64,000 bases of DNA from Parasegetibacter sp. NRK P23 (GCF_023721715.1 NZ_JAMDLG010000001.1:3857655-3921654), one strand, 5' to 3'; shown: positions 4,865 through 47,298, numbered from the stretch's first letter. A program made the numbers and translations. Notes: a model not told the origin generated them from the sequence alone.

Positions 4865-5186
4865 TTTAAAGCGGAAGCGGCGGGTAAATCAAAAATGTTT
4901 TTTAAAAAAGCCGGAAAGCCAGGAAATAGAGGAAAAAAACGCAGTTTTTCCCGTAAAGACACCGTGCAGGCCATCCGTTATTTAACGGATAACAAATCCC
5001 GTGACTTCACCATTGCCAGGTAAATGAGACCTGCCGACCTTTGAATCCAATCAGCCACCATACTCCAGCTTTCTTTACCATTAAGCCAATCCTTCGTGTG
5101 AAGCATATATGAAACCTTTAAACAGGTTACCATGTATGCTTTTTTGTTGTCTCTAATTTGTACCTTTCTGCAATAAATCCATTGCA

Positions 5187-5894: not shown

Positions 5895-5919
5895 CATGTA
5901 CGTTATTTCCTCATTGGAG

Positions 5920-5967
5920 CCGGAAAAAATATAGGTTGATCCCCCCTATTTTTTCCGGTTTTTTTTC
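5920..5967 (+). terminator. rho-independent terminator
   Basis: About 14-bp imperfect stem ccggaaaaaatatagg...cctattttttccgg followed by T8. Confidence 0.7.
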
Positions 5968-5984
5968 GACTTTAGCCCAAACCT

Positions 5985-8207
5985 TTGCACATGAAACCTT
6001 CTCTTCTCCTTATCCTGCTGGCCGTTTGCGCTTTTTCCCGCGCACAAACCGTCAATTATAAACTAAACGCCGGGTTTGAAGCGGATCCCGCCAATGGTGT
6101 ACTCCGAGAATGGAACTGGTACAACTCAACTGGTTATGAAGGCGGTATTGATTCCACTGTAAGCTATTCCGGCAAAAACGCTTTTTATATTAAAAGCACC
6201 ACTGCTCCAAACCCTGCGCAATATGGTGCGATGGGCATCAATATTCCCGCGAGGAAAGGGCAGCAACTGACGATGGAAGGTTACCTGAAACTGGAAAATG
6301 TACAGAACGGCTTAGCGGGTTTTTACCTCGCCATCATCGGCAAAAACGGCACGATTCAGAAAACAGATCTTTCAGAGAGCGGTGTATCGGGAACACAACC
6401 CTGGAAAAAATACAAAGTTTCTATTCCCTTAAGTGCCGATGCACGTACTGTAAATGTAGCGGCCGTAATGGCGGGACAAGGGCAACTATGGATTGACGAT
6501 ATCACACTTTCTATAGATGGAAAACCTTTTGAACAATCGGATACCGTATCAGCACCGTTGGCTGAATCGGATACATCCTTTTCAAATGGCTCACGTATAA
6601 ATGAAATTGCCCCGTCGGCGGCTACTAACGCCGCGCTTGTTTTGCTGGGCCAGGTGTGGGGCTTTGTGAAATACCATCATCCCGCGGTAGCGGCCGGAAA
6701 CTTTAACATGGACGCGGAACTTTTTCGTTTCATGCCCATCTACCTCGCAACTGCTCAACCTGCTGATCAGCAACGCCTGCTGTACAACTGGGTTAAAAAG
6801 TTCGGCGCGGTGAAAACAAAAAAGGATACGGCGCTATCCCTCAAACCATTCCTCGAAACGGATATTTCCTGGCTAACGGAGCAATCGCTGGGAAAGGAAC
6901 TGCATCAATTGTTGCGCGATATTTACCACGCGGAACGTAAGAACCAGCATTACTACATTGCCATGGCGCAAGGTGTGGGTAACCCGGTTATCAAAAATGA
7001 GCTCCCCTACGCAAAAATGCACTTTTCAGATGCGGGACTTCGCATACTCGCGCTGTACCGGTATTGGAACCTGATACAATACTTCTTCCCTTATCGCAAC
7101 CTGTTGGAGGAGAACTGGAACACAACATTGGAGTGCTTTGTTCCACGTTTCGCTTATGCTACTTCTGAAAAGGAATACAAACTAGCCTTACTTCAACTGA
7201 TCGGAAGTATTCATGATACCCATGCGAATGTGTGGGGCAATGAAGCTGTTCTGGCCGAATTCTTTGGCAAAAGATATGGACCGCTCTCCGTGGTATTCGT
7301 GGAAGATAAACCCGTGGTAACAGGATACCTCAACGATTCCCTTGGAAAGAAGACCGGAATATTGCCCGGTGATGTGATTGAAAAAATAAACGGCATTCCC
7401 GCGAATGAGTTGGTGCAGAACCGCATTCCTTATTTTCCCGCATCGAACCTGCCCACAAAAATGCGTGATATAGGACGTGATTTTTTACGGTCGAATGATT
7501 CCACATTGTCCGTTACTTTCAACAGGGATGGGAAGTCTTTTGAAAAGATGATCCCAACGTATACACCCATGCAAGTGAATGTGTATAAAAGGTATTCAGC
7601 TAAAGATACCTGTTTTGGTATGGCTGCACCTGGCATTGCCTGGATATACCCGGGTAAAATAAAGAATGCTTACCTGCCGGCCATAAAAAATGAACTGAAA
7701 AACACAAAAGGCCTGATCATCGACCTGCGCTGCTATCCTTCAGATTTTACGGTGTTTACGTTGGGCGGCTTCCTGGTTCCGAAGTCCACGCCATTTGTGA
7801 AGTTCTCATTTGGTGGTATCCTGATGCCAGGCACGTTCTACCAGGGACAACAACTTAATATTGCACCGACAGATTCCCATACCTACAAAGGAAAGGTTGT
7901 GATTCTCATCAACGAACTTACGCAAAGCCAGGCCGAATATACTACGATGGCATTCAGAACCGCACCTGGAGCTCTGGTGCTGGGCAGTACAACCGCTGGC
8001 GCAGATGGAAATGTTTCCGGCTTCATTCTTCCGGGGAATGTGAGCACCATGTTCAGCGGGATTGGCGTTTATTATCCTGATGGCCGGGAAACACAGCGTG
8101 TGGGCATAATACCGGATATTGAATGTAAGCCAACCATCGCGGGGATAAAAGCGGGCAGAGACGAACTCATGGAAAAGGCAATCGAACTAATCAACAAAGA
8201 AAGATAA
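5985..8207 (+). CDS. S41-family peptidase (tail-specific/tricorn-core-like) with N-terminal CBM-like beta-sandwich and a PDZ domain
   Basis: Signal peptide. PDZ motif (ILPGDVIEKINGIPANEL). S41 catalytic region (LINELTQSQAEYTTMAFRTAPGALVLGSTTAGADG). Confidence 0.75.
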   Translation: MHMKPSLLLILLAVCAFSRAQTVNYKLNAGFEADPANGVLREWNWYNSTGYEGGIDSTVSYSGKNAFYIKSTTAPNPAQYGAMGINIPARKGQQLTMEGYLKLENVQNGLAGFYLAIIGKNGTIQKTDLSESGVSGTQPWKKYKVSIPLSADARTVNVAAVMAGQGQLWIDDITLSIDGKPFEQSDTVSAPLAESDTSFSNGSRINEIAPSAATNAALVLLGQVWGFVKYHHPAVAAGNFNMDAELFRFMPIYLATAQPADQQRLLYNWVKKFGAVKTKKDTALSLKPFLETDISWLTEQSLGKELHQLLRDIYHAERKNQHYYIAMAQGVGNPVIKNELPYAKMHFSDAGLRILALYRYWNLIQYFFPYRNLLEENWNTTLECFVPRFAYATSEKEYKLALLQLIGSIHDTHANVWGNEAVLAEFFGKRYGPLSVVFVEDKPVVTGYLNDSLGKKTGILPGDVIEKINGIPANELVQNRIPYFPASNLPTKMRDIGRDFLRSNDSTLSVTFNRDGKSFEKMIPTYTPMQVNVYKRYSAKDTCFGMAAPGIAWIYPGKIKNAYLPAIKNELKNTKGLIIDLRCYPSDFTVFTLGGFLVPKSTPFVKFSFGGILMPGTFYQGQQLNIAPTDSHTYKGKVVILINELTQSQAEYTTMAFRTAPGALVLGSTTAGADGNVSGFILPGNVSTMFSGIGVYYPDGRETQRVGIIPDIECKPTIAGIKAGRDELMEKAIELINKER

Positions 8208-8237
8208 ATTACTATTTTAGTTGTTAAACCCCTTTCC

Positions 8238-10310
8238 ATGAACGCAACCGTTTCGGCGTCCTTCCAGCAACAGGCAACCAGAGCCGTTTCTTCCATTGTA
8301 TTATTTGTGTTGGTATACCTCTTCCTCTTTATTGCCGTGCTCGGCCTTTCGGTGCTTTGTGTGTACGGTGGGGTGATGCTCATTCTCGCAAAGCCCTCTT
8401 TTATTACGCTGATGCTTGGCGGTGGAATGGTGGGCCTGGCTTTTTTTGTGTTCTACTTCATCATAAAATTCCTTTTTTCAAGAAATAAAGTAGACCGCTC
8501 CGCGCTGCTGGAAGTGTCTGCAACGGAAGAACCGGCGCTCTTCGAGTTTATCCGTGAAACCGCGGCTGAAACGGGAACGCCACTTCCCAAAAAAGTTTAC
8601 CTCTCATCCGATGTGAATGCCTGTGTGTTTTATGATTCGGGTTTCTGGAGCATGTTGCTCCCCATCAAAAAAAACCTGCAGATAGGCGTTGGCCTCGTAA
8701 ACAGTGTTACGGTTTCCGAACTAAAAGCCATCATCGCCCATGAGTTCGGACATTTCAGTCAGCGAAGCATGAAAGTGGGAAGCTATGTATACCACGTGAA
8801 CCACGTGATGTACAATATGCTCAATGATAATGAATCGTACAACAACATGATCGGCCGTTTTGCGAACATGAGCGGATATTTTTCTTTTTTTGCGGGTATC
8901 GCTGTGAAAATCGCAAACGGCATACAATGGGTGCTGCACAAAATGTACGGGTTTGTAAACTTGCGCTACATGGCGCTTTCCAGGGAGATGGAGTTCCACG
9001 CCGATGAAGTGGCCGCTTACGCCGCCGGATCAAAACCACTGGTCACTTCTTTGCTTCGACTTGATCTTTCCGCGCAGGCGCTCGATGAAACGCTTGATTT
9101 CTACAGCAGACGGATTCCGGAAAACATTACTTCCGGAAATGTATACCCGCACCACCGTTTTGTGATGCAACGCCTCGCGCATACTTCAGGTGTTCAGTTG
9201 CAACACGGTCTGCCTGATGTTACAATGGACTTCCTGAGCAGGTTCAACAAATCAAAACTGGTGGTAAAGAACCAGTGGGCCTCTCATCCGGAAACAGAAG
9301 AGCGCATCGGGAAACTTGAAATACTTGCGGTGGAAAAAGAGCAGAACAATGCAGGTGCCTGGAGCCTTTTTAAATCGCCAGCCGCCACACAGGAAAAGAT
9401 GAACGCGGTACTCTTTTCGGCCGTGTCTTATACGGAGGAGCCTGCACAACTTTCAGAGAAAGAATTCAGCTCAGCTTACATCGCCGATGCTGAAAGGTTC
9501 CGCTACCACCCGGTTTTCAATGGGTATTATGATAACAGAACCCTGAAGGCGGAAGACCTGGAACAGGTATTGAAAGAAGCTCCTGCCGATATGCCGGATG
9601 AAGCAGCCACTATTTTTTCCGCTGAAGTCGCGGAGGAAATAAGCGTACTGAATGCGCTGGAAAGCGATATCCGTTCGCTGGAAACAATCGCCGCCGGGAA
9701 TACAGGAATCAAGACGTTCGATTATAACGGTATCCGTTACACGGAAAAAGAAGCGGCTGTCGTTTTGGAAGACGCGAAAAAACAGCAGGAGATGCTGGAA
9801 GCTAAATTGCGACAACACGATCTGCTTGCGCTGAAGTTCTTTTACGCGAACGCACGCCGTTCCGGAAACGAGACACAATGGAAAGAAAGGTACAACAGGT
9901 TTTTTGAGGTGGAAGCAGCATTTAAAGCCGCGGTGGAAGAACACAATGCCTACCTTGCCACAACTGAATTTATGCGTGAAACCCAATCGTATGAGTTTAT
10001 TGAAGCAAATATGGAAGTTTTAAAACAAAAGGAAGCTCCGCTCAAAGAAAAGATGCGCAGGATATTTGAAAGCGAAGAACACCGCGCGTTAATGACGGCT
10101 TATGAAAAAGCCGCGCTGGAAAAATACCTGTCCTGCGAATGGACCTATTTCATACGTCCCGATTATTATAACGATGCGCTCGGCGTAATGTATGAAGCGC
10201 TGCAGTCTTACTACAATACAGTTTTCAATTTTTACAGAATGAAAAGAAAAGAGCTTTTCGATGGGCAGGCGGCCGGGATTTTAACGCCTGCCGAACCAAA
10301 TTTTACCTAA
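8238..10310 (+). CDS. M48-family zinc metallopeptidase (HtpX/Ste24-like). N-terminal TM helices and a long C-terminal helical/coiled-coil extension.
   Basis: HExxH motif in IIAHEFGHFSQR. Downstream EFHADE. Two or more N-terminal TM segments. Confidence 0.75.
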   Translation: MNATVSASFQQQATRAVSSIVLFVLVYLFLFIAVLGLSVLCVYGGVMLILAKPSFITLMLGGGMVGLAFFVFYFIIKFLFSRNKVDRSALLEVSATEEPALFEFIRETAAETGTPLPKKVYLSSDVNACVFYDSGFWSMLLPIKKNLQIGVGLVNSVTVSELKAIIAHEFGHFSQRSMKVGSYVYHVNHVMYNMLNDNESYNNMIGRFANMSGYFSFFAGIAVKIANGIQWVLHKMYGFVNLRYMALSREMEFHADEVAAYAAGSKPLVTSLLRLDLSAQALDETLDFYSRRIPENITSGNVYPHHRFVMQRLAHTSGVQLQHGLPDVTMDFLSRFNKSKLVVKNQWASHPETEERIGKLEILAVEKEQNNAGAWSLFKSPAATQEKMNAVLFSAVSYTEEPAQLSEKEFSSAYIADAERFRYHPVFNGYYDNRTLKAEDLEQVLKEAPADMPDEAATIFSAEVAEEISVLNALESDIRSLETIAAGNTGIKTFDYNGIRYTEKEAAVVLEDAKKQQEMLEAKLRQHDLLALKFFYANARRSGNETQWKERYNRFFEVEAAFKAAVEEHNAYLATTEFMRETQSYEFIEANMEVLKQKEAPLKEKMRRIFESEEHRALMTAYEKAALEKYLSCEWTYFIRPDYYNDALGVMYEALQSYYNTVFNFYRMKRKELFDGQAAGILTPAEPNFT

Positions 10311-10328
10311 CTTCACGTTTCACAAATG

Positions 10329-10480
10329 CACGGGGTGCTTTCCCGCAGGGAAGGCTGAGATCATACCCGGTACCTGATCTGGATAATACCAGCGGAGGAA
10401 TTGCAAAAATGGTGTTGCACATCATTCGGGCGTAAGCTCCTGTTCCCATGGTTTTCCGGGCAGGAGCTTTTGATTTTTTA
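10329..10480 (+). ncRNA. TPP (THI-box) riboswitch with terminator-type expression platform
   Basis: GGGGUGC ... GCUGAGA ... ACCCGGUACCUGAUCUGGAUAAUACCAGCGGAGGAA matches the THI element. It is followed by a 9-bp stem (aagctcctg/caggagctt) plus a U-tract at 10434..10480. Confidence 0.85.
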
Positions 10481-10498
10481 ATACGCAACACCATTACA

Positions 10499-11209
10499 AT
10501 GAAACTCGACCTGTACACACGCGGCCTGCAGCACTGGCAGGGAAGACCGGAATGGTTCTTCAACCGCGAACACACCGATACGTACGAACAATGGTATGAA
10601 GGGCGCTACAAAAGAGCGGAGATCTGGCAGAAAAAAGTGATCGGGGGCCTTATCTCGAAGGATACGCGCGTTAAAACCCTGCTGGAATTCGGTTGCGGAA
10701 CAACCCGCTTCACCCGCTGGTGGAAGAACATTGGTATCGAAGCGATGGGCGCAGATATTTCACCGCTCATGTTGGGCCAGGGCGTACGCCTTTTTGATGG
10801 TGACCTGGTGCTGGCAGATTCGCACCACATGCCTTTCAAAGACCAGACCTTCGACGCGTTGGCTTTCATCACTACCTTTGAATATTACCGTGATCCCATC
10901 CAGGTGATCCGTGAATCCGCCCGCGTAGCGAAATATGGAATCGTATTCGGGATGATGAACAGGAACTCTCCCAAAGTAGTGCGGCGCCGTATTCAGCAGG
11001 CGTTTGGCAAAAATCCTTTTTATGTAACCGCAACATTCTACACACCGGATATGCTGATGGCAAAGATCCACGAAGCGCTGAAAGGCAGGGATTATAGTAT
11101 TGAATGGACCTGCACCGGTTTGCCAAAATGGTTTCCCGTACAGCAATGGAGTGTTCCGGTAGGCGATTTCTTCGGACTCCATGTGAAATTCAATGATGTT
11201 CAACCTTAG
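10499..11209 (+). CDS. class I SAM-dependent methyltransferase (Methyltransf_11-like)
   Basis: SAM-binding motif LEFGCGTTRF. The track ORF starts at 10448, but its first 17 codons overlap the riboswitch terminator, so the start is moved to MKLDLY at 10499. Confidence 0.7.
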   Translation: MKLDLYTRGLQHWQGRPEWFFNREHTDTYEQWYEGRYKRAEIWQKKVIGGLISKDTRVKTLLEFGCGTTRFTRWWKNIGIEAMGADISPLMLGQGVRLFDGDLVLADSHHMPFKDQTFDALAFITTFEYYRDPIQVIRESARVAKYGIVFGMMNRNSPKVVRRRIQQAFGKNPFYVTATFYTPDMLMAKIHEALKGRDYSIEWTCTGLPKWFPVQQWSVPVGDFFGLHVKFNDVQP

Positions 11210-11212
11210 TCG

Positions 11213-12277
11213 ATGAGCAGTTTCGATACCACTGGAAAATTTCAGCAGGCGTTTTTTGAAGAACACCTCTATCCGAAATTTGGCCTGAACCGCCCTGAAG
11301 TGCGTGTGGGTCCCGCCTTCGGCGTGGATGTGAGCATCGTTGACCTGCCCGGGAACATGGGACTCGCCATTACCAGTGATCCGCTTTCGCTGATACCTTC
11401 ACTCGGTTACCGTGAATCGGCCTGGCTTTCCGTTCAACTCCTGGTGAATGATATGGCCACTACAGGATTTGCGCCCATGTACGCGCAATTCGTGCTCAAC
11501 CTGCCGCAGTCGCTGGATGAAAAGGGTTTCAAAGAATACTGGAACTGGATCAATCATTATTGTATTCAAACAGGCGTGGCCATTACGGGTGGGCATACCT
11601 GTAAGATAGAAGGGATGCAATCCACCATTGTGGGAGGCGGAACCATGTTTCTCACAGCATCAAGGGAGGAAATACTTACCAGTCAGGGAGCGGAACCCGG
11701 AGATGTACTTGTACTGCTGGGAGAACCGGCCTGTTCCTCCACCTCAATTCTTTCGCTGAGCTTCCCTGAAACTATCACGGAAAAACTGGGAAAGGAAGTA
11801 CAACAAAAAGCCGCTGACCTTTTCTCCAGCACTTCCGTGCTCCATCCTGCGTTGCGCGCCGCCGCATTCAATGGTCAATATCCTGGGGCGTTGAAAGCCA
11901 TGCACGATGTTACCGAAGGAGGGGTGTACGGCGCCATTTTTGAAATGGCCGTCGCTTCCGGAACAGGCGTTGAGGTTTACGCGGAGAAAATGCCCGAAGC
12001 GCCCGTGCAGCGGGAGATATGTGCGTTGTTCAATATAGATCCGTGCATCAGTGTTGGCGCGGGCGCCATGATTCTTGCCGCCAATCACCGGTACGCCGGA
12101 ATGTTGGTGAAATCGTTGGAAGAGGAAGGTTTTCATGCCGCCATTATTGGAAGCTTCCTCAACGACCCCGAAGGAAAATGGCTGGAAACAACTGAGGGAA
12201 GAACACCGTTACCCTACCCGGAAAAGGACCCGTACTGGAATGCTTTTTTCACCGCTTTAAAAAATGGATGGAAATAA
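11213..12277 (+). CDS. AIR-synthase-related (PurM superfamily; ThiL/HypE-like) protein
   Basis: PurM-like N- and C-domains (GVDVSIVDL..., TGGHT..., DVTEGG). The ThiL family belongs to this superfamily. The gene sits in a TPP-riboswitch operon. Confidence 0.65.
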   Translation: MSSFDTTGKFQQAFFEEHLYPKFGLNRPEVRVGPAFGVDVSIVDLPGNMGLAITSDPLSLIPSLGYRESAWLSVQLLVNDMATTGFAPMYAQFVLNLPQSLDEKGFKEYWNWINHYCIQTGVAITGGHTCKIEGMQSTIVGGGTMFLTASREEILTSQGAEPGDVLVLLGEPACSSTSILSLSFPETITEKLGKEVQQKAADLFSSTSVLHPALRAAAFNGQYPGALKAMHDVTEGGVYGAIFEMAVASGTGVEVYAEKMPEAPVQREICALFNIDPCISVGAGAMILAANHRYAGMLVKSLEEEGFHAAIIGSFLNDPEGKWLETTEGRTPLPYPEKDPYWNAFFTALKNGWK

Positions 12278-12286
12278 ACCATACAA

Positions 12287-12928
12287 ATGAAACGAATGAT
12301 TAAGAACGGAATTTACCTCGTGGTGGACCCGGCCATGCCGCTGATGAAATTATTGCCATTGCTGGAACAGGTATTGGAAGCGGGCGTGTCCACCGTACAG
12401 GTTTGGGATCATTTCCCGGCAGGATGCGATCCAGTTGCGTATACAAGGGCTATCATGGATATTGGGAAAAAGTTCAATGTGCCCGTGCTCATCAATCAAA
12501 ACATTGCTCTTTTCTTTGAAACAGGTGCGGATGGTATTCATTTCGACCAGGTTCCAAACCAGTATGATAAACTGAGAGAGCAAGCCGGGCCGGACTCCAT
12601 CATTGGCATCACTTGCGGAAACGATATGGAACGCGTACAATGGGCCGCCGAGAATAACATAGATTACATTTCCTTTTGTTCCATGTTCCCCTCCGCCTCT
12701 GCGGGGGTATGTGAAATCGTCAATCCGGCAAACATTTTAAAAGCCAGGGAAATATTCAGCGGCAAGATCTTTCTTTCAGGCGGCATCACGCCGGCAAACA
12801 TGGCCAATCTCGCACCGCTGAAAACGGATGGTATTGCCGTGATATCCGGTATTCTCAGCGCCGCCGATCCCGCAGGAGCCGCACGTAATTACCTGAACAC
12901 GTTTGAGCAACAGGCCACCGTACTATAA
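12287..12928 (+). CDS. thiE: thiamine-phosphate synthase (ThiE/TenI family)
   Basis: TMP-TENI fold motifs (GIYLVVDP..., QVWDHF, GADGIHFDQ, ISFCSMFPS). 213 aa. Downstream of a TPP riboswitch. Confidence 0.65.
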   Translation: MKRMIKNGIYLVVDPAMPLMKLLPLLEQVLEAGVSTVQVWDHFPAGCDPVAYTRAIMDIGKKFNVPVLINQNIALFFETGADGIHFDQVPNQYDKLREQAGPDSIIGITCGNDMERVQWAAENNIDYISFCSMFPSASAGVCEIVNPANILKAREIFSGKIFLSGGITPANMANLAPLKTDGIAVISGILSAADPAGAARNYLNTFEQQATVL

Positions 12929-12951
12929 TAACAATTAACACCAGTTTTTTT

Positions 12952-13206
12952 ATGAGCCCATCAACCATAGCAAAGCTTTGCTGCCCAATGGACAAAAGTG
13001 ATCTTGAACTGAAAATAATGTCGCGCGATACCAATGGCGATATCGTAGAAGGCTTGCTTACCTGCCCTTCCTGCCAACGTTATTACCCTATTGTATATGG
13101 TGTGCCCATTATGCAGCCTGATGAGTACCGGGAGCAGCAGCTGGAAAAACCAATATTGGACCGTTGGGGTGTACAAGCTGCGCTGCCCGCAACTACCAAC
13201 CAATAG
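12952..13206 (+). CDS. Trm112/YcaR-like zinc-ribbon protein
   Basis: CP..C ... CPSC ... YPIVYGVPIM pattern of the Trm112p/DUF343 family. Confidence 0.55.
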   Translation: MSPSTIAKLCCPMDKSDLELKIMSRDTNGDIVEGLLTCPSCQRYYPIVYGVPIMQPDEYREQQLEKPILDRWGVQAALPATTNQ

Positions 13207-13428
13207 ATAGTACCCATGAAGTACGTGCGGCCAACTGGTAATCAGTATTGATCCGGGCATAAATTGAATACGGCCAACAGGATTACAAACCGTAAAAACG
13301 GATAACTACAGGTGTACCCTAACCCCGCAGCGCCTGAAGAAGTAATGGTTTCTGCTGAAATGGCCGCCGCGTTCAATGGCTGGATGGATCAATAAAATGA
13401 ACCTGAACCAAAATCGTATCTTTAAGGC

Positions 13429-13926
13429 ATGAAAAAGGCGCCGGATCTGCACTCCCACATAAATATACCAAAGGCCATATTCCTGTTTTTGTTTGTAACA
13501 GGTTCATGGATAACATGTTTGGCACAACAACCCTCCGTTTCCGTTAAGCAATTTTCCTGGCTCGCGGGCAAATGGAAAAATACGGAACGGAACAGCTTTG
13601 AATACTGGAAGTTTAATGAAGACAGTAGCCTGCTGACCGGTTATTCATTCAGCATAAAAGAGGGCGATACCACCATTACCGAAAAACTCCAGTTTGTATG
13701 CGAAGGACCCACCTGTTATTACGTGGCCGATGTTCCCGACAATGGCAAGCCCATACGTTTCGCGATGATGCAGCATACACCGAACGGTTTTCGTTCCGAG
13801 AACCAGCAGCACGATTACCCGAAATACATTGAATACAAACTGGAAGGGCCGGGAAAATTAAGGGCGGAAGTGGGCGACGCCACCCGAAAACAGGTCTTTA
13901 ACTTTGAACGGCAGGATAAGCTATAA
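13429..13926 (+). CDS. secreted hypothetical protein
   Basis: Signal peptide. No catalytic motif recognised. Confidence 0.55.
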   Translation: MKKAPDLHSHINIPKAIFLFLFVTGSWITCLAQQPSVSVKQFSWLAGKWKNTERNSFEYWKFNEDSSLLTGYSFSIKEGDTTITEKLQFVCEGPTCYYVADVPDNGKPIRFAMMQHTPNGFRSENQQHDYPKYIEYKLEGPGKLRAEVGDATRKQVFNFERQDKL

Positions 13927-14467
13927 CGTATAAGAATACACGTTTTTTTGAAGAGGCCACCATCTTTATTTTGTTTTCTTCGATCAGTTTTTTCAATGCA
14001 TTGCTGATAGTGGAACTCGAAGGCTGAATGGCATAATCCTCTTTTAAAAGCATCCTGATCGTTTTTACTTCCCGGGGTTCATTCAAAAAGCCGGAAGGCA
14101 GTACCCGCTCCCGTAAAATCGACAATACTTTATTGGCGGCGAGTTTTTCCCGGTAATCTTTTAGCTCGTCCGGATTTTTCGCTTTGATATACGCTTCGGA
14201 ACTTTCTTTCAGCAAAGAAAAATCGGGCACTGAAAAAGTTTTGGAAGGATCGAACAGGTCATAATTCACGCCGAAAAAACTACAGATATGATAACGATGG
14301 TGTTGGTTGAAACGAATGCTGCCTTTCTCGATACCTGCAATCGTATTCAGCGAGAACCTGCAACCCCTCGCAAGGTCGTTTTGTGCAATGCCAAGCCGCA
14401 GTCGTAACTGAATGATACGCTTCCCGATCAGCTGTGATTCTTCCGCTAAAATTTGCTCAACATTCAC
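13898..14467 (-). CDS. XRE-family (HTH_3) transcriptional regulator
   Basis: HTH: IGKRIIQLRLRLGIAQNDLARGCRFSLNTIAGIEKG. Confidence 0.7.
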   Translation of the reverse strand: MNVEQILAEESQLIGKRIIQLRLRLGIAQNDLARGCRFSLNTIAGIEKGSIRFNQHHRYHICSFFGVNYDLFDPSKTFSVPDFSLLKESSEAYIKAKNPDELKDYREKLAANKVLSILRERVLPSGFLNEPREVKTIRMLLKEDYAIQPSSSTISNALKKLIEENKIKMVASSKKRVFLYVIAYPAVQS

Positions 14468-14786
14468 CGGGCAAAGAGAGATATCCGTTTAATTTTATTT
14501 TGCTCAATATTTTGATGAATAATAAATTGACCTATATTTGTTGCACCACACACCGTTTTTTCACCACCACATTTATGGGTTTATTTCTCACCGGCTTACG
14601 GTGAAAGCACGATTGCTGTTCCTTTCAGGATGAACTAGCTTTCAGTTTTTATTTCACGCCACCCACCACAAGGCATTCCTGGTTGATGTACACGATGCGG
14701 AGATACTTACGCGGAAGAGTCGCAACGATTACCATAAAGACTACGCATCGGCCACGATATCAATTATTAACCAAAACCAACTGTAA

Positions 14787-15830
14787 ATGAAAAAACTACT
14801 CTTTTTCATGCTGGGTACCTGTGTGCTGTTACTGAACGGAATGGCGCAAAAAACTTCTGTACCAGACCTTTCCATGGCGTTGAAACCCGGGGAAAAAGTT
14901 CCGGATATTACGCTGAATAACCTGCTTAATTATAAAGAGAACACCGCGAAACTTTCAGATTTTGAAGGGAAGCTGGTAATACTCGACTTTTTCGCCACCT
15001 GGTGCACATCCTGTGTGGGAGCCCTGCCGCATCTTGACGCTTTGCAAAAGCAAAGAAACGATGTGAAAATATTGGTCGTGACTTCTGAACCGAAGGAAAA
15101 AGTAAAAGCATTTTTTGAACGGAACAAATTATTGAAAGGGCTGGAGTTAACCCTGGTAACGGAAGACACTACATGTAAGCAATTTTTCCCCCACCAACTT
15201 ATACCCCATGAAGTCTGGATCAGCGGAAACCGGGTCCTGAAAGCTGTTACCGAGGCAGAATATGTTACTGCCGACAAAATAAACGAGGCGCTCGCAGGAA
15301 AAGAAATTTCCTGGGTAATGAAAGACGATTTTTTCACTTTCGATCATTCAAAACCACTGAAACCCTTACTGGATAAGGTAACTGCCGCGCCAGGAAAATC
15401 TTTCTATTCCGGCTTTACGGGTTATATACACGGTCCGGGTTTTTTGAAAGAAGGACTGATCACAGATTCCGCAGCACAAACAACCAGGTTTTACATCCTC
15501 AACGCGCCTGTCCTGAACATGTATTACAAAGCCTTTAAAGAAGAGCGGCTGGGATTCCTTAAATCTCCAGCGCATAGAGCGCTACTGGTAAAGGACACCT
15601 TGCAATACCTGTACGATCCCGCTATCCATAAGTATAAAAGAGAGTGGCAAAAAAAATACGCTTTCTGCTACGAATCCGCCTGGCCAATCGGAACTCCGGA
15701 AGCTGTTATGCGGGAAAAACTAAAGCATGATATTGACCATTATTTCGGCCTTGAAGGAAACATCCGGAACACCTCCACAGGGTTAAAACAGTTTGTGCTG
15801 AAAGAAACAATGATTTCCTCAAAACGATAA
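14787..15830 (+). CDS. TlpA-like thioredoxin-fold thiol-disulfide oxidoreductase with long C-terminal extension
   Basis: Signal peptide. WCTSC (CxxC) motif in ILDFFATWCTSCVGALPHL. Confidence 0.7.
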   Translation: MKKLLFFMLGTCVLLLNGMAQKTSVPDLSMALKPGEKVPDITLNNLLNYKENTAKLSDFEGKLVILDFFATWCTSCVGALPHLDALQKQRNDVKILVVTSEPKEKVKAFFERNKLLKGLELTLVTEDTTCKQFFPHQLIPHEVWISGNRVLKAVTEAEYVTADKINEALAGKEISWVMKDDFFTFDHSKPLKPLLDKVTAAPGKSFYSGFTGYIHGPGFLKEGLITDSAAQTTRFYILNAPVLNMYYKAFKEERLGFLKSPAHRALLVKDTLQYLYDPAIHKYKREWQKKYAFCYESAWPIGTPEAVMREKLKHDIDHYFGLEGNIRNTSTGLKQFVLKETMISSKR

Positions 15831-26037: not shown

Positions 26038-26110
26038 GGTGCGGTAGCTCAGTTGGTAGAGCAAAGGACTGAAAATCCTTGTGTCGCCGGTTCGATTCCG
26101 GCCCACACCA
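26038..26110 (+). tRNA. tRNA-Phe (GAA)
   Basis: Cloverleaf drawn by hand. D-arm GCTCAGTTGGTAGAGC. Anticodon stem-loop AAGGA-CUGAAAA-UCCUU. T-arm GCCGG-TTCGATT-CCGGC. Close to E. coli tRNA-Phe. Confidence 0.85.
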
Positions 26111-26117
26111 CGAAGAA

Positions 26118-33662: not shown

Positions 33663-33682
33663 TTCATTTGGTTTTATAAAAG

Positions 33683-33754
33683 CACGGGATGAAGGATTCG
33701 AACCTTCATGCACGGGTTTGGAATCCGTGTTGTTGCCAATTACATCAACCCCGC
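33683..33754 (-). tRNA. tRNA-Trp (CCA)
   Basis: Acceptor GCGGGGU/AUCCCGU (2 G-U). Anticodon loop UUCCAAA. T-arm GAAGG-TTCGAAT-CCTTC. Discriminator G. Confidence 0.7.
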
Positions 33755-33757
33755 GAA

Positions 33758-33832
33758 TGGTGGATGAAACAGGATTCGAACCTGTAACCACGGCGTTTCA
33801 AACCGCTGCTCTACCATTGGAGCTATTCATCC
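33758..33832 (-). tRNA. tRNA-Phe (GAA), second copy, CCA encoded
   Basis: Acceptor GGAUGAA/UUCAUCC. D-arm GCTCCAATGGTAGAGC. Anticodon stem GCGGU/GCCGU with loop UUGAAAC. T-arm ACAGG-TTCGAAT-CCTGT. Confidence 0.65.
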
Positions 33833-33836
33833 GTTG

Positions 33837-33908
33837 TTGGTCCGGCAGGATTTGAACCTGCAGCCTTGAACGTATCAGGTTCCTGCGCTACCATTGCGCC
33901 ACGGACCA
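33837..33908 (-). tRNA. tRNA-Ile (GAU)
   Basis: Acceptor UGGUCCG/CGGACCA. D-stem GCGC/GCGC. Anticodon loop CUGAUAC. T-arm GCAGG-TTCAAAT-CCTGC. Confidence 0.6.
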
Positions 33909-33987
33909 TTTGCCGGCTCAGAAAGATTGGAACTTTCACTGTTGTGTTCGTAGCACAGTGTTCTTTCCGGTTAAACTATAAGCCGGG

Positions 33988-34060
33988 GGTTGTCTCCGGG
34001 CCTCGAACCCTGTTCTCTTCTTTCACAGGGAGGCGCTTTACCCGTTAAGCTAAAGACAAC
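33988..34060 (-). tRNA. tRNA of uncertain identity. Anticodon loop CUGUGAA (GUG, His-like) with discriminator C73, but a weak anticodon stem.
   Basis: Perfect 7-bp acceptor GUUGUCU/AGACAAC. D-stem GCTT/AAGC. T-loop TTCGAGG. Anticodon stem CCUCC/AGAAG has two C-A mismatches. No encoded G-1. Confidence 0.4.
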
Positions 34061-34066
34061 AAACTG

Positions 34067-34138
34067 TTGTTGAGGCTGGATTCGAACCAGCATCTTCAGC
34101 GCCAAAAGCTGACGTGCTCGCCGTTGCACTACTCAACA
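34067..34138 (-). tRNA. tRNA-Gln (UUG)
   Basis: Acceptor UGUUGAG/CUCAACA (U1-A72 as in bacterial tRNA-Gln). Anticodon stem-loop UCAGC-UUUUGGC-GCUGA. T-arm GCTGG-TTCGAAT-CCAGC. Confidence 0.8.
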
Positions 34139-41783: not shown

Positions 41784-44700
41784 ATGAACGGGTTGAACAT
41801 TGTTATAAGAGGGCATAAGCAGACGCCCGCAGTTGCGACCAATGCAGGCGATGTATTGGAGCTGGAAGCGTCTTACACGATTACCGGGGTTTCCCGAGGC
41901 GATGCCTCTGCCCATAAGATCACACTGAACAGGGAGAAATTACTTGAATTTATTTTTGAAGATGAAACTACATGGATGTGCAGCGATGCATCCATCAACG
42001 AATTATTCCCCGAACTGGATGCGCCTGGCATGGCTTCGGCGGTACGTGGCGGCGATGGCGCATTCGAAATACCCGCGGCATTAAAGGCGTCGGGAGCGGA
42101 ACGTGGATGGGTGACCAACGTGGCCATAAAGCTCATCAATGTATTCGCGAAAAAGAAGATAGGCATCACCGTTGAAAAAGCCGCCAGGAATTATGAGTTG
42201 AAGAACCTGGGCAATGTGGTGGGACTTTTTAAAGTAGATACTGGCTTTCATTTGCACGAATTCCGTGCGCCGGAGCTGGGGAAACCGGTGCTTTTGCTGA
42301 TCCATGGAACAGCGTCTTCCGTATGGGGTTGCTTTGGCGGAATGAAAAATACAGAACTCTGGAAATACCTTTGCCAAACCTATGGTAACAATATTTACGC
42401 TTTCCAGCATGAAACACTGAGCAAAAGTCCGTTAGACAATATCCGCGAACTTATCGGGCTATTGCCTTCCAACCTCCACCTGCATATCATTACACATTCA
42501 CGTGGTGGATTGCTGGGAGATGTACTCTCCAGATTCACAGATTCTGATGCGGGGAAAAATGGCTTTACAGATGAGGAACTGGCTTTGCTGGAGAAAGAGA
42601 AAAGACATGCAGACCTCCGGAACATTGAGGCGATCACGAAGTTGATGGCGGGGAAACAGTTGCGTGTGGAGCGTTTCATCCGTGTTGCCTGTCCTGCCGC
42701 CGGAACGATACTGGCTTCCAAACGACTGGATATTTATTTCAATGTGATCGCCAACCTTACCGGTTTATTAACCGGTTCACTGGCCAACCCGCTGTTCACG
42801 GCTTTCCGCGAACTGATCGCCTCGGTGATCGATACCAAAGATGACAGCGATGTATTACCGGGCATAGAAGCCATGAACCCGGAATCGCCGTTTTTGAAAG
42901 TGCTGAACAATCCATCCACGTCAGCGCCATTGAACAATCAATTGGTGGTGGTGGCCGGTAACTGTGGACTGAACTTCAGTATGAAGGCGTTGAAGATACT
43001 TGCCGTTCGCCTTTTTTTCCTGGAAGCCAACGACCTTGTGGTGAACAGCGATTCCATGTACCTGGGGGCCAAAAGAAAAATGCCAGTGCAGTATTTTTTT
43101 GATGAGGCCGATGATGTGGACCACTTCAGCTATTTCAGGAATAAAAAGACGGGCCAGGCTATGATGCGCGCCTTCCAGACCCAGCCCGATAAGCCTGTTC
43201 CGGGGTACGCGCTCTTCAACAGCCCCAGCTCGGAAGAAGCCCTCCGCAACGCGTTATTTAACCCGGAAGGTGGTGAACTTTTCCCCGATGAAATCACGGG
43301 AAAAAGACCTATCGCTGTGCTGTTACCCGGCATCATGGGCTCCAATATTGGTCCTAAGGGCGACCTGCTCTGGATCAATTACTGGAAGTTCATTAAGGGT
43401 GGGTTAAAAGACCTGAACAACCTGGAGGAATACACCGCAACTTCCGTGGTGAAAACCTCGTATAAAAAACTGAAAGATGAACTCTCCGCGAAATACGATG
43501 TGGAGACTTTTCATTTCGACTGGCGTCGTCCATTGACCGAAGTGGCCGCTATCTTCAATGAAAGAATAAAACAACTGATGGCCTTCGGCCAGCCGATCAG
43601 GTTGATTGGCCACTCTATGGGCGGTGTGGTGATCCGTGATTTTATGGTGAACCACCGCGAAACCTGGCAGCAGCTCAATAATTCCACGGGCTTCCGGCTT
43701 ATCTTCCTCGGGTCCCCACTGGGCGGCTCTTTCAGAATTCCCTACGTGTTGTTCGGGAAAGATTCCATCATCAAGAAACTCGCGATGATCGATATGCGCC
43801 ACAGCAAAAAGGAGTTGTTGCGCGTGTTTTCAGGCATGCAGGGATTGTTAAGTTTACTTCCCCTCGATAAAAACAATGCGGAAAATGATTTTGGAAACGG
43901 TGAAACCTGGCGACAGATGGCCCAGGCTGTAGGCGATTCTTCCTGGCCGCTTCCGCCTGCCAATACAATTAAAGCATTTGCAGATTACCGTGATGGCATA
44001 ACGGATCTTTCAGCGGATGACTTTAAGAATGCCGTGTACATAGCAGGGAAAGATAAGTCCACACCTTGCGGTTATCGCATCGAAAATGGGCAGCTCGTGT
44101 TCCTAAGTACCGCCGAAGGCGACCAGAGCGTAACCTGGGAAACAGGCATTCCTGCTTTAATGTCAGCCGCCAATAATGTGTATTACGTAAACGTTTCGCA
44201 TGGCGCGCTGGCCAACGAACCTTCCATGTTCAAAGGCATTGGTGAAATACTTGAAACAGGTACCACCAACCTTTTGAGTAAGAAACGGCCGGTGGTACGC
44301 GGGGAAGAAAAAGTATTCCGTACACCGGAAGTACACGACTTCGATACTTCCATGATAGGGTTGGAAAAAACACTGCTGGGATTGGGTGGAGAAACCACCG
44401 GAATTGAGCGGGGTGAAACACCGATCCGGGTATGGGTAAGTAACGGGGACCTTTCTTACGCGGCAAATCCGGTACTCGCAGGTCACTTTGAAGATGATGG
44501 CGTACTGTATGCCGAATCTTATATAGATGCGCTGCTGGATGGCGCGTTGCGAAAAAGACACCAGCTTGGATTGTACCCGGGAAAAATCGGTACCAGTGAA
44601 GTGTTCCTGCCCGATGCGGGTCGGTTTACCGGAGCGATTATAACCGGTTTAGGTAAACCCGGTACATTAACGGCGCACCAGCTCACGCTTACCGTAGAGC

Positions 44701-47243
44701 AGGGGGTCACCAATTATTTACTGGGCTTTAACAGCGGGCTGGAACGCAGGCAAAAAAAGAACGACGGGTCGGGTATTTCCTCACTTATTATCGGGTGTGG
44801 ATATGGCGGACTAAGCGTGGAGAATTCCATCCGCGCCATTTTACAGGGCGTTCAGAATGCCAATGTGAAAATGGCGAAATTGTATGGAACCCATTGCCGG
44901 ATGGTGGAAGATGTAGAATTTGTGGAGAAGGACCACAGTCGCGCGCTCGGATGTTTCTATTCACTCGCAAGAATAGAGCAGGAGCGCAACCGCTGGCTCA
45001 ACATTACTTTACCCGAGAAAAAAATAAGGCTCCTGCTGGGAAGGACCAAAAGAATACCACACGACGCCAGCGAGGAATGGTGGAACCGCATCACCGTAAG
45101 GCAGTATGGTCTGGAGACGTTGGAAAGAAAAGCCATCAGCAGCCTGCATTTCAGCGCCTCCACCGGAGGGGCAAGAGAGGAAGTGCGGGTACTGCATTGC
45201 AGCATGGGAATTATTGATGAACTGGTGAACAATATTTCCACCAGCAATGAATGGACGCCACAACGAGCCAAGACCATCTTCGAATTGCTGATACCCAACG
45301 ATTTTAAAGAACAACTCAAAAGGCAATGCCATATCTCCTGGATACTGGACAAGGAAACGGCCGCTTATCCCTGGGAGTTGCTGCAGGACACGATCCAGAA
45401 TGCAAAACCCCTGTGCATCAGCGCGGGCATGATCCGTCAACTGGCCACGGAGCAATACCGGACCATTATCAATCCAGCGGTGAAGAACAATGTGCTGATT
45501 ATTGCCGAACCGCAGCTCAACGGCGCGGCCCCCGCCCTTCCGGCAGCAAAAGAAGAGGGGCTGCAAGTGGCGGATATATTGAAGGAGAACGGGTACGAAA
45601 CAAAACTCGTGGCAGAAGCAGCGGCCCCGGAAATAATCCAGGCTTTATACGAAGACGATTACCGTATTATTCACCTGGCGGGACACGGTTTTTTCAACGA
45701 ACAGGAACCGGAAAATTCCGGGATGATGATCGGTCATAATGTCTATCTCTCCACCCGTGAAATCGCCCAGATGAGTGTGGTTCCGGAACTGGTGGTGGTG
45801 AACTGCTGCTTCCTGGGCAAAACTTCCGGAGCCGCCGAAGCGCTGTACAACAAGAGATACCGGCTGGCCGCCAACATTGGCACACAACTGATTGAAAACG
45901 GAGTGAAAGCCGTAGTGGCCGCAGGGTGGGCTGTGAACGACGCGGCAGCGCAGGAGTTTACCAATGTGTTTTACAAACACCTTTTCGATGGGTATAACTT
46001 CGGGGAAGCTGTGCTGGAAGCTCGAAAGGCTGTTTTCACGCTGTTCCCGGGAACGAACACCTGGGGGGCCTATCAATGCTATGGTGATCCGTTCTTTAAA
46101 TTGAAAGCGAATGGTCCTTCCAGGAAAGAAGCGCGTCCGTTGTCGTATGTTATTTCGGAAGAAGCGGAATACGACCTGTTCAACCTGCTGAATGAACTGG
46201 AGATGGGGAACCGGCCCGTAGCTGAATACAACCGCAAACTGGTCGCCATCATGGATGCCGTTGACCGTGCGGGCATCCGGAATGCGGAGATCACCGAAAA
46301 AGAAGCATGGGTCCTCACTGAACTGGCGAGTTTTGATGAGGCCATCGTGAAGTACGAGCAGTTGCTCCGGATGGAAAAAGCGCTTTTCACTTTCCTCAGT
46401 ATGGAAAGGTATTGCGATATCAGGGGCAGAAAACTGTTGCGCGATCTTCAGCGTAAACTCATTACGGCCGCACAGGCGGAAGAAGGCATCCTCCGCGTGA
46501 TTGCCGACCTGGGTGTGCTGATCAACGCCGGCGGTACGGCAGAGCGGTTCGGGCTACTCGCGCGCGCCTACAAAAGAAAAGCGCTGATGACCAACCAGTC
46601 CGCCGCCCGGACAAAGCTGCTGGAAAAAGCGGCCGCGCTTTGTTACCAGGCATACCAGGTGGCGGGAAAAGGGGAGAATATGTACGCGCTAACGGCATGG
46701 CTGGAAATGGAAAGCGTGCTGGTATTGGTCTACGGAAGAAAATGGGGACAGTCCTGCCGCTCGGAAAACCTGACCTACACACTCCCGCAAGCCGAGGATG
46801 TTCTAAAATTACTCGAGCAGTCCGCCACTACTGTTTACAGCGACGACGATGAATTTGATTACAACGATATGGTTTCCGCCACACACATCGAACTCTGCAG
46901 AATGCTGGTGGGCAAAGCGTCCGGCGGGGAAGAGGACTGGAGCAATATTATGCGTACGCTGCAATCTATATGGGAAAAGGCCGGCTCCCCGGGTAAAAAG
47001 ATCGCGGAAACTGAAAGATGGTGCTTCCTGGCACATGCGCTTTCAGGCCAGAGAAAAGATATTGCTTACGAATTCATCCCCGAAGGAAACGCAGGTATGG
47101 AAACGATCAGCGTGTATGTTGAAATGGTCAGGGAAGTGTTGAAGCTCCGTAAAAAGAACGGCGGCATCTCCGTGAAAAAAGCACCGGTTAAGAAGGCTGC
47201 CCCCAAGAAAAGCCCGGCGAAAAAACGGGTTACGAAAAAGTAA
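41784..47243 (+). CDS. 1819-aa multidomain protein: unknown N-domain + two tandem lipase/esterase-like alpha/beta-hydrolase modules + caspase-like region + CHAT protease domain + TPR-like helical array + Lys/Ala/Pro-rich tail
   Basis: GxSxG elbows ITHSRGG (~aa 239) and IGHSMGG (~aa 611), each preceded by an oxyanion-type LLIHGT / LLPGIMGS segment. CHAT dyad HLAGHG (~aa 1298) and VVVNCCFLG (~aa 1342). C-terminal helical repeats. Tail KKAPVKKAAPKKSPAKKRVTKK. Single uninterrupted frame. Confidence 0.85.
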   Translation: MNGLNIVIRGHKQTPAVATNAGDVLELEASYTITGVSRGDASAHKITLNREKLLEFIFEDETTWMCSDASINELFPELDAPGMASAVRGGDGAFEIPAALKASGAERGWVTNVAIKLINVFAKKKIGITVEKAARNYELKNLGNVVGLFKVDTGFHLHEFRAPELGKPVLLLIHGTASSVWGCFGGMKNTELWKYLCQTYGNNIYAFQHETLSKSPLDNIRELIGLLPSNLHLHIITHSRGGLLGDVLSRFTDSDAGKNGFTDEELALLEKEKRHADLRNIEAITKLMAGKQLRVERFIRVACPAAGTILASKRLDIYFNVIANLTGLLTGSLANPLFTAFRELIASVIDTKDDSDVLPGIEAMNPESPFLKVLNNPSTSAPLNNQLVVVAGNCGLNFSMKALKILAVRLFFLEANDLVVNSDSMYLGAKRKMPVQYFFDEADDVDHFSYFRNKKTGQAMMRAFQTQPDKPVPGYALFNSPSSEEALRNALFNPEGGELFPDEITGKRPIAVLLPGIMGSNIGPKGDLLWINYWKFIKGGLKDLNNLEEYTATSVVKTSYKKLKDELSAKYDVETFHFDWRRPLTEVAAIFNERIKQLMAFGQPIRLIGHSMGGVVIRDFMVNHRETWQQLNNSTGFRLIFLGSPLGGSFRIPYVLFGKDSIIKKLAMIDMRHSKKELLRVFSGMQGLLSLLPLDKNNAENDFGNGETWRQMAQAVGDSSWPLPPANTIKAFADYRDGITDLSADDFKNAVYIAGKDKSTPCGYRIENGQLVFLSTAEGDQSVTWETGIPALMSAANNVYYVNVSHGALANEPSMFKGIGEILETGTTNLLSKKRPVVRGEEKVFRTPEVHDFDTSMIGLEKTLLGLGGETTGIERGETPIRVWVSNGDLSYAANPVLAGHFEDDGVLYAESYIDALLDGALRKRHQLGLYPGKIGTSEVFLPDAGRFTGAIITGLGKPGTLTAHQLTLTVEQGVTNYLLGFNSGLERRQKKNDGSGISSLIIGCGYGGLSVENSIRAILQGVQNANVKMAKLYGTHCRMVEDVEFVEKDHSRALGCFYSLARIEQERNRWLNITLPEKKIRLLLGRTKRIPHDASEEWWNRITVRQYGLETLERKAISSLHFSASTGGAREEVRVLHCSMGIIDELVNNISTSNEWTPQRAKTIFELLIPNDFKEQLKRQCHISWILDKETAAYPWELLQDTIQNAKPLCISAGMIRQLATEQYRTIINPAVKNNVLIIAEPQLNGAAPALPAAKEEGLQVADILKENGYETKLVAEAAAPEIIQALYEDDYRIIHLAGHGFFNEQEPENSGMMIGHNVYLSTREIAQMSVVPELVVVNCCFLGKTSGAAEALYNKRYRLAANIGTQLIENGVKAVVAAGWAVNDAAAQEFTNVFYKHLFDGYNFGEAVLEARKAVFTLFPGTNTWGAYQCYGDPFFKLKANGPSRKEARPLSYVISEEAEYDLFNLLNELEMGNRPVAEYNRKLVAIMDAVDRAGIRNAEITEKEAWVLTELASFDEAIVKYEQLLRMEKALFTFLSMERYCDIRGRKLLRDLQRKLITAAQAEEGILRVIADLGVLINAGGTAERFGLLARAYKRKALMTNQSAARTKLLEKAAALCYQAYQVAGKGENMYALTAWLEMESVLVLVYGRKWGQSCRSENLTYTLPQAEDVLKLLEQSATTVYSDDDEFDYNDMVSATHIELCRMLVGKASGGEEDWSNIMRTLQSIWEKAGSPGKKIAETERWCFLAHALSGQRKDIAYEFIPEGNAGMETISVYVEMVREVLKLRKKNGGISVKKAPVKKAAPKKSPAKKRVTKK

Positions 47244-47250
47244 AATGAAA

Positions 47251-47298
47251 CGGGCGTATCAAAGAACGATACGCCCGCGTTTATTTCATTCATATTTT
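47251..47298 (+). terminator. strong rho-independent terminator of the giant gene
   Basis: Perfect 10-bp stem cgggcgtatc/gatacgcccg with a 7-nt loop, followed by a T-rich tract. Confidence 0.8.

Follow-up and report, generated by a model that had tools for sequence, protein, structure and literature searches.

A giant protein combining two alpha/beta-hydrolases with a CHAT protease in Parasegetibacter sp. NRK P23 belongs to a large bacterial family with a candidate conflict role

The DNA analyzed here, a 64,000-nucleotide stretch of the genome of Parasegetibacter sp. NRK P23 (family Chitinophagaceae; NZ_JAMDLG010000001.1:3857655-3921654; hereafter the window), carries a giant gene on its plus strand at positions 41784-47243. 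The original prediction, made from the sequence alone, described a single open reading frame (ORF) of 1819 amino acids (aa) that links seven parts and proposed a conflict or cell-death system. The ORF is a real gene and not a chance reading frame: its product is identical to WP_251760761.1, annotated as 'CHAT domain-containing protein', and its Pfam architecture is common to more than 120 full-length relatives with 47-56% identity. On balance, we lean towards the view that the gene encodes a cytoplasmic, single-chain conflict-type protein, serving immunity or programmed death, of a large family. The gene and its parts are as follows, with positions counted from the first letter of the window.

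41784..47243, plus strand: complete, uninterrupted ORF of 1819 codons and a stop codon
41784..42263, plus strand: conserved N-terminal region (aa 1-160), beta-rich, with no Pfam match and a predicted local distance difference test score (pLDDT) mostly <50
42276..43223, plus strand: alpha/beta-hydrolase 1 (aa ~165-480), Pfam DUF7379 (PF24096), 2.5e-31
43296..44288, plus strand: alpha/beta-hydrolase 2 (aa ~505-835), LCAT- or lysosomal phospholipase A2-like
44286..44363, plus strand: conserved, predicted-disordered linker (aa 835-860) with the motif P-x-x-R839-[G/A/S]
44421..45038, plus strand: macro-fold or leucine aminopeptidase (LAP) N-terminal-like domain (aa ~880-1085), from Foldseek
45267..46088, plus strand: CHAT protease domain (clan CD, caspase fold; aa 1162-1435), Pfam CHAT 1.3e-30
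46146..47159, plus strand: helical repeat region (aa ~1455-1792), all-helical in the model, with Pfam TPR-S inside
47160..47240, plus strand: Lys/Ala/Pro-rich basic tail (aa ~1793-1819), lineage-specific, pLDDT <50

Conservation was scored in an alignment of 69 full-length homologues from species-representative genomes of several phyla. Pfam matches were counted if above the gathering score, which four families pass in the window protein, and two AlphaFold2 (AF2) models were used, with mean pLDDT 71.8 for the model that holds the hydrolases and 75.4 for the one that holds CHAT.

The two consecutive alpha/beta-hydrolases of the original prediction, each with its own nucleophile elbow, are borne out by matches to DUF7379 and LCAT above the Pfam cut-offs. 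Hydrolase 1 matches DUF7379 from aa 170 (109.6 bits versus a cut-off of 33) and has the nucleophile motif HSRGG and the oxyanion motif HGT174-176; its alpha/beta core is modeled at pLDDT 76-94, with low-confidence insertions at 304-334 and 395-425. Hydrolase 2 matches LCAT (PF02450) at aa 574-698 (32.6 bits versus 21, E 6.6e-8) and has pLDDT 85-96 across much of its length. When the modules were checked for catalytic triads in the alignment, the residues of both were present and kept in 68-69 of the 69 homologues: S239/D417/H447 of hydrolase 1 is invariant (69/69), and in hydrolase 2 S611 is found in 68/69 and D780 and H806 in 69/69. In their N-terminal cores, as far as the nucleophile elbow, the two modules are homologous (hhalign 95%).

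Hydrolase 2 resembles LCAT and lysosomal phospholipase A2 (LPLA2, group XV PLA2) in sequence, fold, GHSMGG elbow and Ser-Asp-His triad. Its PDB profile matches are LCAT and group XV PLA2, and its top PDB match in Foldseek is LPLA2 4x95 (E 3.2e-6, target-normalized template modeling score (TM) 0.56), followed by bacterial lipases. It differs in having only 14-16% identity to these enzymes and in belonging to a bacterial, cytoplasmic protein fused to other domains. Hydrolase 2 is a candidate acyl-ester (phospholipid) hydrolase or acyltransferase. Lone LCAT-like hydrolase genes, encoding proteins with 23-35% identity to hydrolase 2 (aa ~505-812), are also found on IMG/VR viral contigs (L086-L092).

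The linker that follows is poorly ordered in the model (pLDDT <50 at 838-842 and 850-860), and R839 is present in 64/69 homologues, with Lys in two more, the next residue being G/A/S in 65/69. This motif is a candidate protease cleavage site.

The CHAT domain (PF12770) scores 107.3 bits versus 24 and covers profile positions 4-289 of 289. Its His/Cys dyad, H1301/C1342, and the adjacent C1341 are invariant in 69/69 homologues (HLAGH1301G, VVVNC1341C1342), so the CHAT assignment and the dyad hold, with the correction that the histidine first numbered H1298 should read H1301. Foldseek matches of the CHAT model include Csx29 (TPR-CHAT) and SAVED-CHAT (E 4e-6 to 1e-4), separase and caspase-9 (to 1e-3). 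Judged from the alignment, the three catalytic centers, those of the two hydrolases and of CHAT, are under strong purifying selection across phyla.

The segment between the linker and CHAT, for which caspase-like His/Cys motifs had been proposed, is not caspase-like, because C1005 varies among homologues (T/S/C/A), comparison with the CHAT profile is null (hhalign 0.1%) and the fold is macro- or LAP-N-like; a second, degenerate caspase is therefore ruled out. Of the proposed His/Cys motifs, only H901 is conserved. Foldseek matches comprise YmdB 5cb3 (19% identity), TTHA0132 2dx6 and LAP N-terminal domains, with target-normalized TM 0.6-0.75 and a root-mean-square deviation of about 4 Å overall; designed hydrolases of the same fold also match, with TM ~0.7, as for 2dx6. 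Against PDB profiles, the segment finds the N-terminal domain of the LAP 3jru (E 0.019), and Pfam Peptidase_M17_N (PF02789) matches 10/20 diverse family members (best 1e-6). Canonical Macro (PF01661) gave no match to this domain. The conserved motifs GH901(F/Y)xxD, YPG931-933 and GLG suggest a functional pocket or interface. LAP N-terminal domains assemble hexamers, and by analogy an alternative role of the domain might be to drive oligomerization.

C-terminal to CHAT, the proposed TPR-like helical repeats are found at aa ~1458-1792 and include TPR-S (PF20308, 'Tetratricopeptide Repeats-Sensor') at aa 1517-1637 (36.5 bits versus 27.6, 7.8e-9), a match that recurs across nearly all homologues. 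Foldseek relates the region to the central regulatory TPR of ASK1 (5ulm). Identity to homologues is 0.08-0.31 here versus 0.4-0.58 for the catalytic domains, and by this measure no other structured part of the protein evolves faster than the helical repeat region. Following the naming by the family's authors, TPR-S is predicted to be a ligand or invader sensor.

The termini are less readily assigned. The N-terminal ~160 aa match no Pfam family, in keeping with the earlier remark that they carry no recognizable motif, and their invariant residues include R38, F58, D60, W64 and R107. A divergent YEATS domain was considered for this region and ruled out, with an hhalign value of 0.7% versus the pYEATS of family member P0052; the segment after pYEATS in P0052 aligns with it at a probability of 99.9%, and pYEATS itself is found in some family members as an additional N-terminal domain. 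The basic tail, likened originally to histone H1, is indeed Lys-rich, but it is not a conserved part: aa 1801-1819 fall in columns with 91% gaps, and Lys+Arg content of at least 33% over the last 40 residues occurs in 7/69 homologues, in tails that are mutually non-homologous. Besides the window protein, the members at L013, L018, L023, L009 and L052 end in Lys-rich low-complexity tails (for example KPKSKPKSK or KKAPVKKAAPKK), which have thus arisen several times in distant lineages and are not homologous. Such tails may bind membranes or nucleic acids. No transmembrane segment was found in the window protein, the top Kyte-Doolittle 19-mer (1.65) being a CHAT core strand, and no signal peptide was found; the protein is therefore predicted to be cytoplasmic.

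The architecture is not singular. A scan of aa 161-1160 against 1.84 billion cluster representatives, clustered at 50% identity, recovers the hydrolase-macro-like core in at least 1,128 representatives at E<=1e-30. Among the best 150 of these 1,128, lengths are about 1,750-1,850 aa, save for truncated entries, and the match usually starts at residue 160-180; because lengths are uniform and the match begins there, the architecture including the N-terminal region is stable in the family. Members occur in Bacteroidota (Chitinophagaceae, Flavobacteriaceae, Cytophagales and Saprospiraceae), in Beta- and Gammaproteobacteria (Azotobacter, Thiothrix, Zoogloea and Aromatoleum), and in Nitrospira, Acidobacteriota, Methylomirabilis and Desulfuromonadaceae, a patchy, multi-phylum spread, and some are borne on plasmids (Paracoccus, Ensifer and Azotobacter). 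Variants carry pYEATS at the extreme N-terminus or, in P0158 (2387 aa), an nSTAND1 NTPase (1e-74) N-terminal to the complete architecture. Two others of about 2360 aa lack a Pfam TPR-S match: P0228 has a further, C-terminal DUF7379 at aa 2097-2271, and P0206 has three DUF7379 stretches. Pfam already shows the family as DUF7379 + LCAT + CHAT + TPR-S, and its building blocks had been described in earlier computational work. Burroughs and Aravind (2020, J Bacteriol) reportedly define TPR-S and pYEATS and may already sketch this architecture.

Genomic context was counted over 80 loci (48 Bacteroidota, 32 non-Bacteroidota) of at least 167 detected. No neighbor is universally conserved over the 80 loci, the largest neighbor cluster being present in 10/80. 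Many flanks consist of housekeeping genes (ffh, rpsP-rimM, rpmB/rpmG-ftsY, accBC and pfk). The closest named homologue (Foetidibacter, 56% identity) lies at another chromosomal location in a different housekeeping neighborhood, and the neighborhoods of uvrD homologues in relatives are rearranged. Among 133 flanking proteins, none of vWA, MoxR and VMAP ranks within the top 25 Pfam families by frequency.

A Pfam-confirmed TIR gene lies within 10 kb in 13/80 loci, five of them in Chitinophagaceae or Cytophagales, and it directly adjoins the giant gene at L012, L016, L020, L055 and L057. TIR signaling systems are present in about 8% of genomes and 20 kb is <0.5% of a genome, so 13 loci are far above chance; our own rough estimate of the chance expectation, which is not a computed statistic, is <0.3 loci of 80. 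In seven loci from Proteobacteria or Nitrospira, the giant gene is immediately preceded by an intact, co-oriented Peptidase_C14 caspase gene, and a Peptidase_C11 (clostripain) gene is upstream in two loci. Stand-alone TPR-S proteins are encoded beside the giant gene in six loci (L010, L026, L041, L052, L060 and L079). At least one neighbor of these four types (TIR, C14, C11 or TPR-S) is present in 16/32 non-Bacteroidota loci versus 7/48 Bacteroidota loci. The claim that the gene has no partners therefore stands for the window and most Bacteroidota loci but fails in half of the non-Bacteroidota loci. Most Bacteroidota copies, including that in the window, lie among housekeeping genes and not in defense islands.

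Coordinates of stand-alone TPR-S genes are L010:7793-9160, L041:10482-12530, L052:4238-5578, L060:6207-8207 and L079:14746-16992. The stand-alone proteins are 447-749 aa long, and some match MAP3K_TRAF_bd (ASK1-type TPR), with no Pfam match elsewhere. TIR fusions beside family members involve FGE-sulfatase, CD225 (interferon-induced transmembrane protein family), SIR2_2 and DUF4062, at L071:16279-17688, L020:3872-4666, L002:3079-4425 and L006:7415-8395.

In Azotobacter chroococcum DSM 2286 (L057), tandem giant paralogues are part of a compact, one-strand cluster at 1135-15211, a candidate operon well suited to experiments, in the following order.

1135-1929: C14 caspase
1943-7435: giant gene 1
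then a small ORF
8531-9412: TIR_2
9587-15211: giant gene 2

On a mobilizable plasmid of A. chroococcum strain HR1 (L082, NZ_CP066312.1), the giant gene at 8518-13905 is flanked by a type I restriction-modification system interleaved with two Fic genes, a PD-(D/E)XK nuclease, a recombinase and three insertion sequence transposases.

The window protein belongs to no catalogued defense system, because neither PADLOC v2 nor NCBIfam yields a real match; NCBIfam gave no meaningful match, and the original judgment that this is not a described system stands. In PADLOC v2, the match to Borvo BovA (8e-8, 29.7 bits) is weak and limited to the CHAT core (aa 1273-1417 versus profile positions 525-666 of 711), and a SAVED_CHAT match, again in the CHAT part only, is non-significant (E 0.034); Pfam finds no SAVED domain in the window protein. 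Borvo is likewise a one-gene system with a CHAT protease and presumed abortive infection, but no match to BovA was seen in the hydrolase, macro-like or TPR-S parts, and the window protein is 2.5 times the length of the BovA profile.

The best structural matches to the window CHAT, Csx29 TPR-CHAT (type III-E CRISPR, Craspase) and SAVED-CHAT (type III and CBASS), come from systems in which a sensor domain, TPR or SAVED, gates the protease. SAVED-CHAT activates a second caspase-like protease (the PCaspase cascade), a step paralleled by the C14 gene upstream of proteobacterial relatives. Those systems differ in that the window TPR is C-terminal to CHAT and of the TPR-S family, and in having no fused lipase-like and macro-like domains. 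Thoeris offers a further parallel: in type IV (TIR + caspase-like ThsE) a caspase-fold protease is the immune effector, in type VIII (TIR + CMP-hydrolase-TPR ThsI) the TPR presumably receives a nucleotide made by the TIR protein, cyclic ADP-ribose (cADPR), and TIR genes are enriched beside the giant-protein family. Here, however, no TIR gene is present in the window or at most loci, the neighboring TIRs are heterogeneous, and the effector chemistry of the giant protein is that of dual serine hydrolases. The window TPR-S and the ThsI TPR are likened by domain description. Arg-specific caspase-like immune proteases are known in bacteria, as in the killing by type IV Thoeris.

A pairing of caspase and alpha/beta-hydrolase is also known: in VMAP (vWA-MoxR) ternary conflict systems, caspase domains always come with an alpha/beta-hydrolase, and the two are predicted to operate jointly (Kaur et al. 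2020, eLife, PMC7159879). There, the components are separate or VMAP-fused parts of multi-gene NTPase systems, whereas here they form one chain with TPR-S. Distinctive in the family is thus the one-chain fusion of dual lipase, LAP-N/macro-like domain, CHAT and TPR-S; its parts and logic are of kinds already known, namely repeat-sensor CHAT immune proteases, lipolytic death effectors and the caspase + alpha/beta-hydrolase pairing.

A conflict role is favored by the patchy multi-phylum spread, the non-syntenic sites, the plasmid copies, the tandem paralogues and the pYEATS and nSTAND1 fusions, and by the enrichment of TIR, C14, C11 and stand-alone TPR-S genes beside the family. The comparative context thus supports the role originally proposed, while the sensor-protease-effector mechanism is one that we infer. 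In this mechanism, the divergent TPR-S repeats, possibly together with the macro/M17_N-like domain, would perceive a trigger, which could come from the invader or be a nucleotide second messenger, for instance one made by a TIR protein. Perception would turn on the CHAT protease, probably via oligomerization. CHAT would then cut its own disordered linker (P-x-x-R839-G) and/or other proteins, and in Proteobacteria its target may be the co-encoded C14 caspase. Cleavage would free or activate the N-terminal serine hydrolases (DUF7379 and LCAT/PLA2-like), which would attack membrane lipids and lead to cell death or arrest. Since the window protein stands alone, it would either sense directly or rely on a partner encoded elsewhere in the genome. 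The most specific form of the proposal, that the family is an autonomous one-protein immune system in which a TPR-S/macro-like receptor triggers CHAT autoprocessing at Arg839 and a dual phospholipase then destroys the membrane, is put forward tentatively, as a possible but rather doubtful scheme.

Several observations weigh against a conflict role or its proposed mechanism. In 41/48 Bacteroidota loci and in the window, the gene is surrounded by housekeeping functions, and TIR, caspase and other defense genes are missing. The TIRs that do neighbor the family are heterogeneous in sequence and fusions (SIR2, FGE-sulfatase, CD225, DUF4062 and TPR) and form no single clade. Phage genomes and IMG/VR contigs hold no full-length relatives, only isolated LCAT-like hydrolases, and because of this absence the mobility of the family seems only moderate. 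PADLOC v2 has no model for the protein, the Borvo match being its sole significant one. At the level of the protein, confidence in the AF2 models is medium (pLDDT 72-75), the macro-like segment of the window protein, unlike those of some relatives, has no Pfam Peptidase_M17_N match, and the lipid substrates, autoprocessing and ligand are putative.

The neighboring TIR genes invite another explanation, in which the giant protein would serve a TIR (Thoeris-like) pathway as its obligate effector; its TPR-S and/or macro-like domain would bind an NAD-derived signal made by a TIR protein, it would do no sensing of its own, and in Parasegetibacter the gene for that TIR protein would lie elsewhere in the genome. 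We consider this unlikely. The 13/80 loci with TIR within 10 kb, immediately adjacent in five, and the TIR gene between both Azotobacter paralogues agree with it, as do known receivers and effectors of TIR signals: type II Thoeris macro domains receive His-ADPR, the type IV effector is a caspase-like protease, and ThsI, the cADPR-activated type VIII effector, has a TPR domain whose predicted role in TIR signaling is credited to Burroughs & Aravind 2020. Yet 67/80 loci have no TIR gene, and none was found across the 64-kb window with an ad-hoc TIR hidden Markov model at maximum sensitivity. The macro-like domain has more in common with the N-terminal domain of LAP, for which ADP-ribose binding is not known, and in the part of Table S1 of a systematic TIR survey that was examined, no effector label corresponds to the giant protein. 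The neighboring TIRs, moreover, resemble different Thoeris types and carry unrelated fusions. When they were typed against 18 reference TIR domains (from Table S1 of 10.64898/2025.12.03.692087), best matches scattered over several types and none was consistently type VIII, which, with so tiny a reference set, is only weak evidence against a single cognate TIR. Because the neighboring TIRs are heterogeneous, co-localization in islands fits better than a dedicated TIR partner.

The protease itself could instead be the executioner, with the two hydrolases serving not as membrane attackers but as accessory enzymes or sensors, such as an esterase or peptidase processing some ligand or substrate, or a lipase-like module that binds a ligand, in the manner of plant EDS1/PAD4. 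This reading, which we hold to be distinctly improbable, gains from the activated type IV Thoeris caspase and PCaspase, which kill by promiscuous proteolysis alone, and from Kaur et al. (PMC7159879), who treat alpha/beta-hydrolase and caspase as a peptidase pair and not as a lipase. Some variants of the family also place a third DUF7379 C-terminally, in the sensor position, instead of TPR-S. Against this, hydrolase 2 is specifically LCAT/LPLA2-like, and hydrolase 1 bears insertions resembling the lids that lipases typically have. Strict conservation of both triads argues that catalysis is selected, in contrast to EDS1/PAD4, where the catalytic triad is dispensable. Very unlikely, in our judgment, is a housekeeping or developmental role in regulated proteolysis and lipid remodeling (division, envelope turnover or stress), like that of the CHAT protein HetF. 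Most Bacteroidota copies do lie amid ffh, rpsP-rimM, rpmB/rpmG-ftsY, accBC and pfk, and length and architecture are very uniform over >1,000 clusters, but synteny is lacking even among close relatives, and the family is scattered patchily over several phyla and includes plasmid copies. The NCBIfam similarity to HetF that might support such a role is weak (18 bits versus a cut-off of 1200, in the CHAT part only), and tandem paralogues, nSTAND1/pYEATS fusions and TIR or caspase neighbors are hallmarks of conflict systems.

Should the preferred reading of an immune or programmed-death protein and its proposed mechanism be true, the family would represent a bacterial protease-to-lipase death switch that brings TIR/Thoeris signaling, caspase cascades and lipid executioners into one modular scaffold. 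A protease-activated phospholipase would then join the known death effectors (pore-forming gasdermins, the patatin CapV and NADases), and over a thousand clusters from bacteria of soil and water would encode an immune or cell-death effector, with carriers including Bacteroidota, which are poorly covered by current defense catalogues. The family would also offer a test case for ligands of TPR-S and LAP-N/macro-like domains, and the proteobacterial versions with upstream C14 would be a second natural CHAT-to-caspase cascade.

In its immediate setting, the giant gene is followed by a bidirectional, intrinsic-terminator-like hairpin (47250..47278, both strands; 12-pair stem with seven GC pairs, T-runs on both strands), located 3' of its stop and before a convergent lipoprotein gene, in agreement with the strong terminator described originally. 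The flanks are also as described: the convergent downstream ORF carries a lipobox (LFSC), and a UvrD/PcrA helicase, 100% identical to UvrD of Parasegetibacter sp. NRK P23, comes next, with a CMD-family protein gene on the same side. Upstream and divergent are genes for a 3-keto-disaccharide hydrolase, a peptidyl-prolyl isomerase, an MFS transporter and an AraC regulator. The promoter claimed for the gene was not recovered, as a sigma-70 scan of the 103-bp divergent intergenic region 5' of it found none, with a model not suited to Bacteroidota promoters. The ten flanking genes in the window gave no Pfam match to vWA, MoxR or VMAP, and no CRISPR proteins, including Cas7-11, and no cyclase or SAVED domain were found among the flanking genes scanned.

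Elsewhere in the window, a cluster of six tRNA genes lies at 33682-34138 on the minus strand (Trp-cca, Phe-gaa, Ile-gat, Arg-acg, His-gtg and Gln-ttg, with a spacing of 0-5 nt), and a second tRNA-Phe(gaa) is found 7.6 kb from it at 26038-26111 on the plus strand. The GC content falls to 0.40-0.42 at 26-28 kb and 34-36 kb. This tRNA group could be a tRNA array or the remnant of an integration hotspot.

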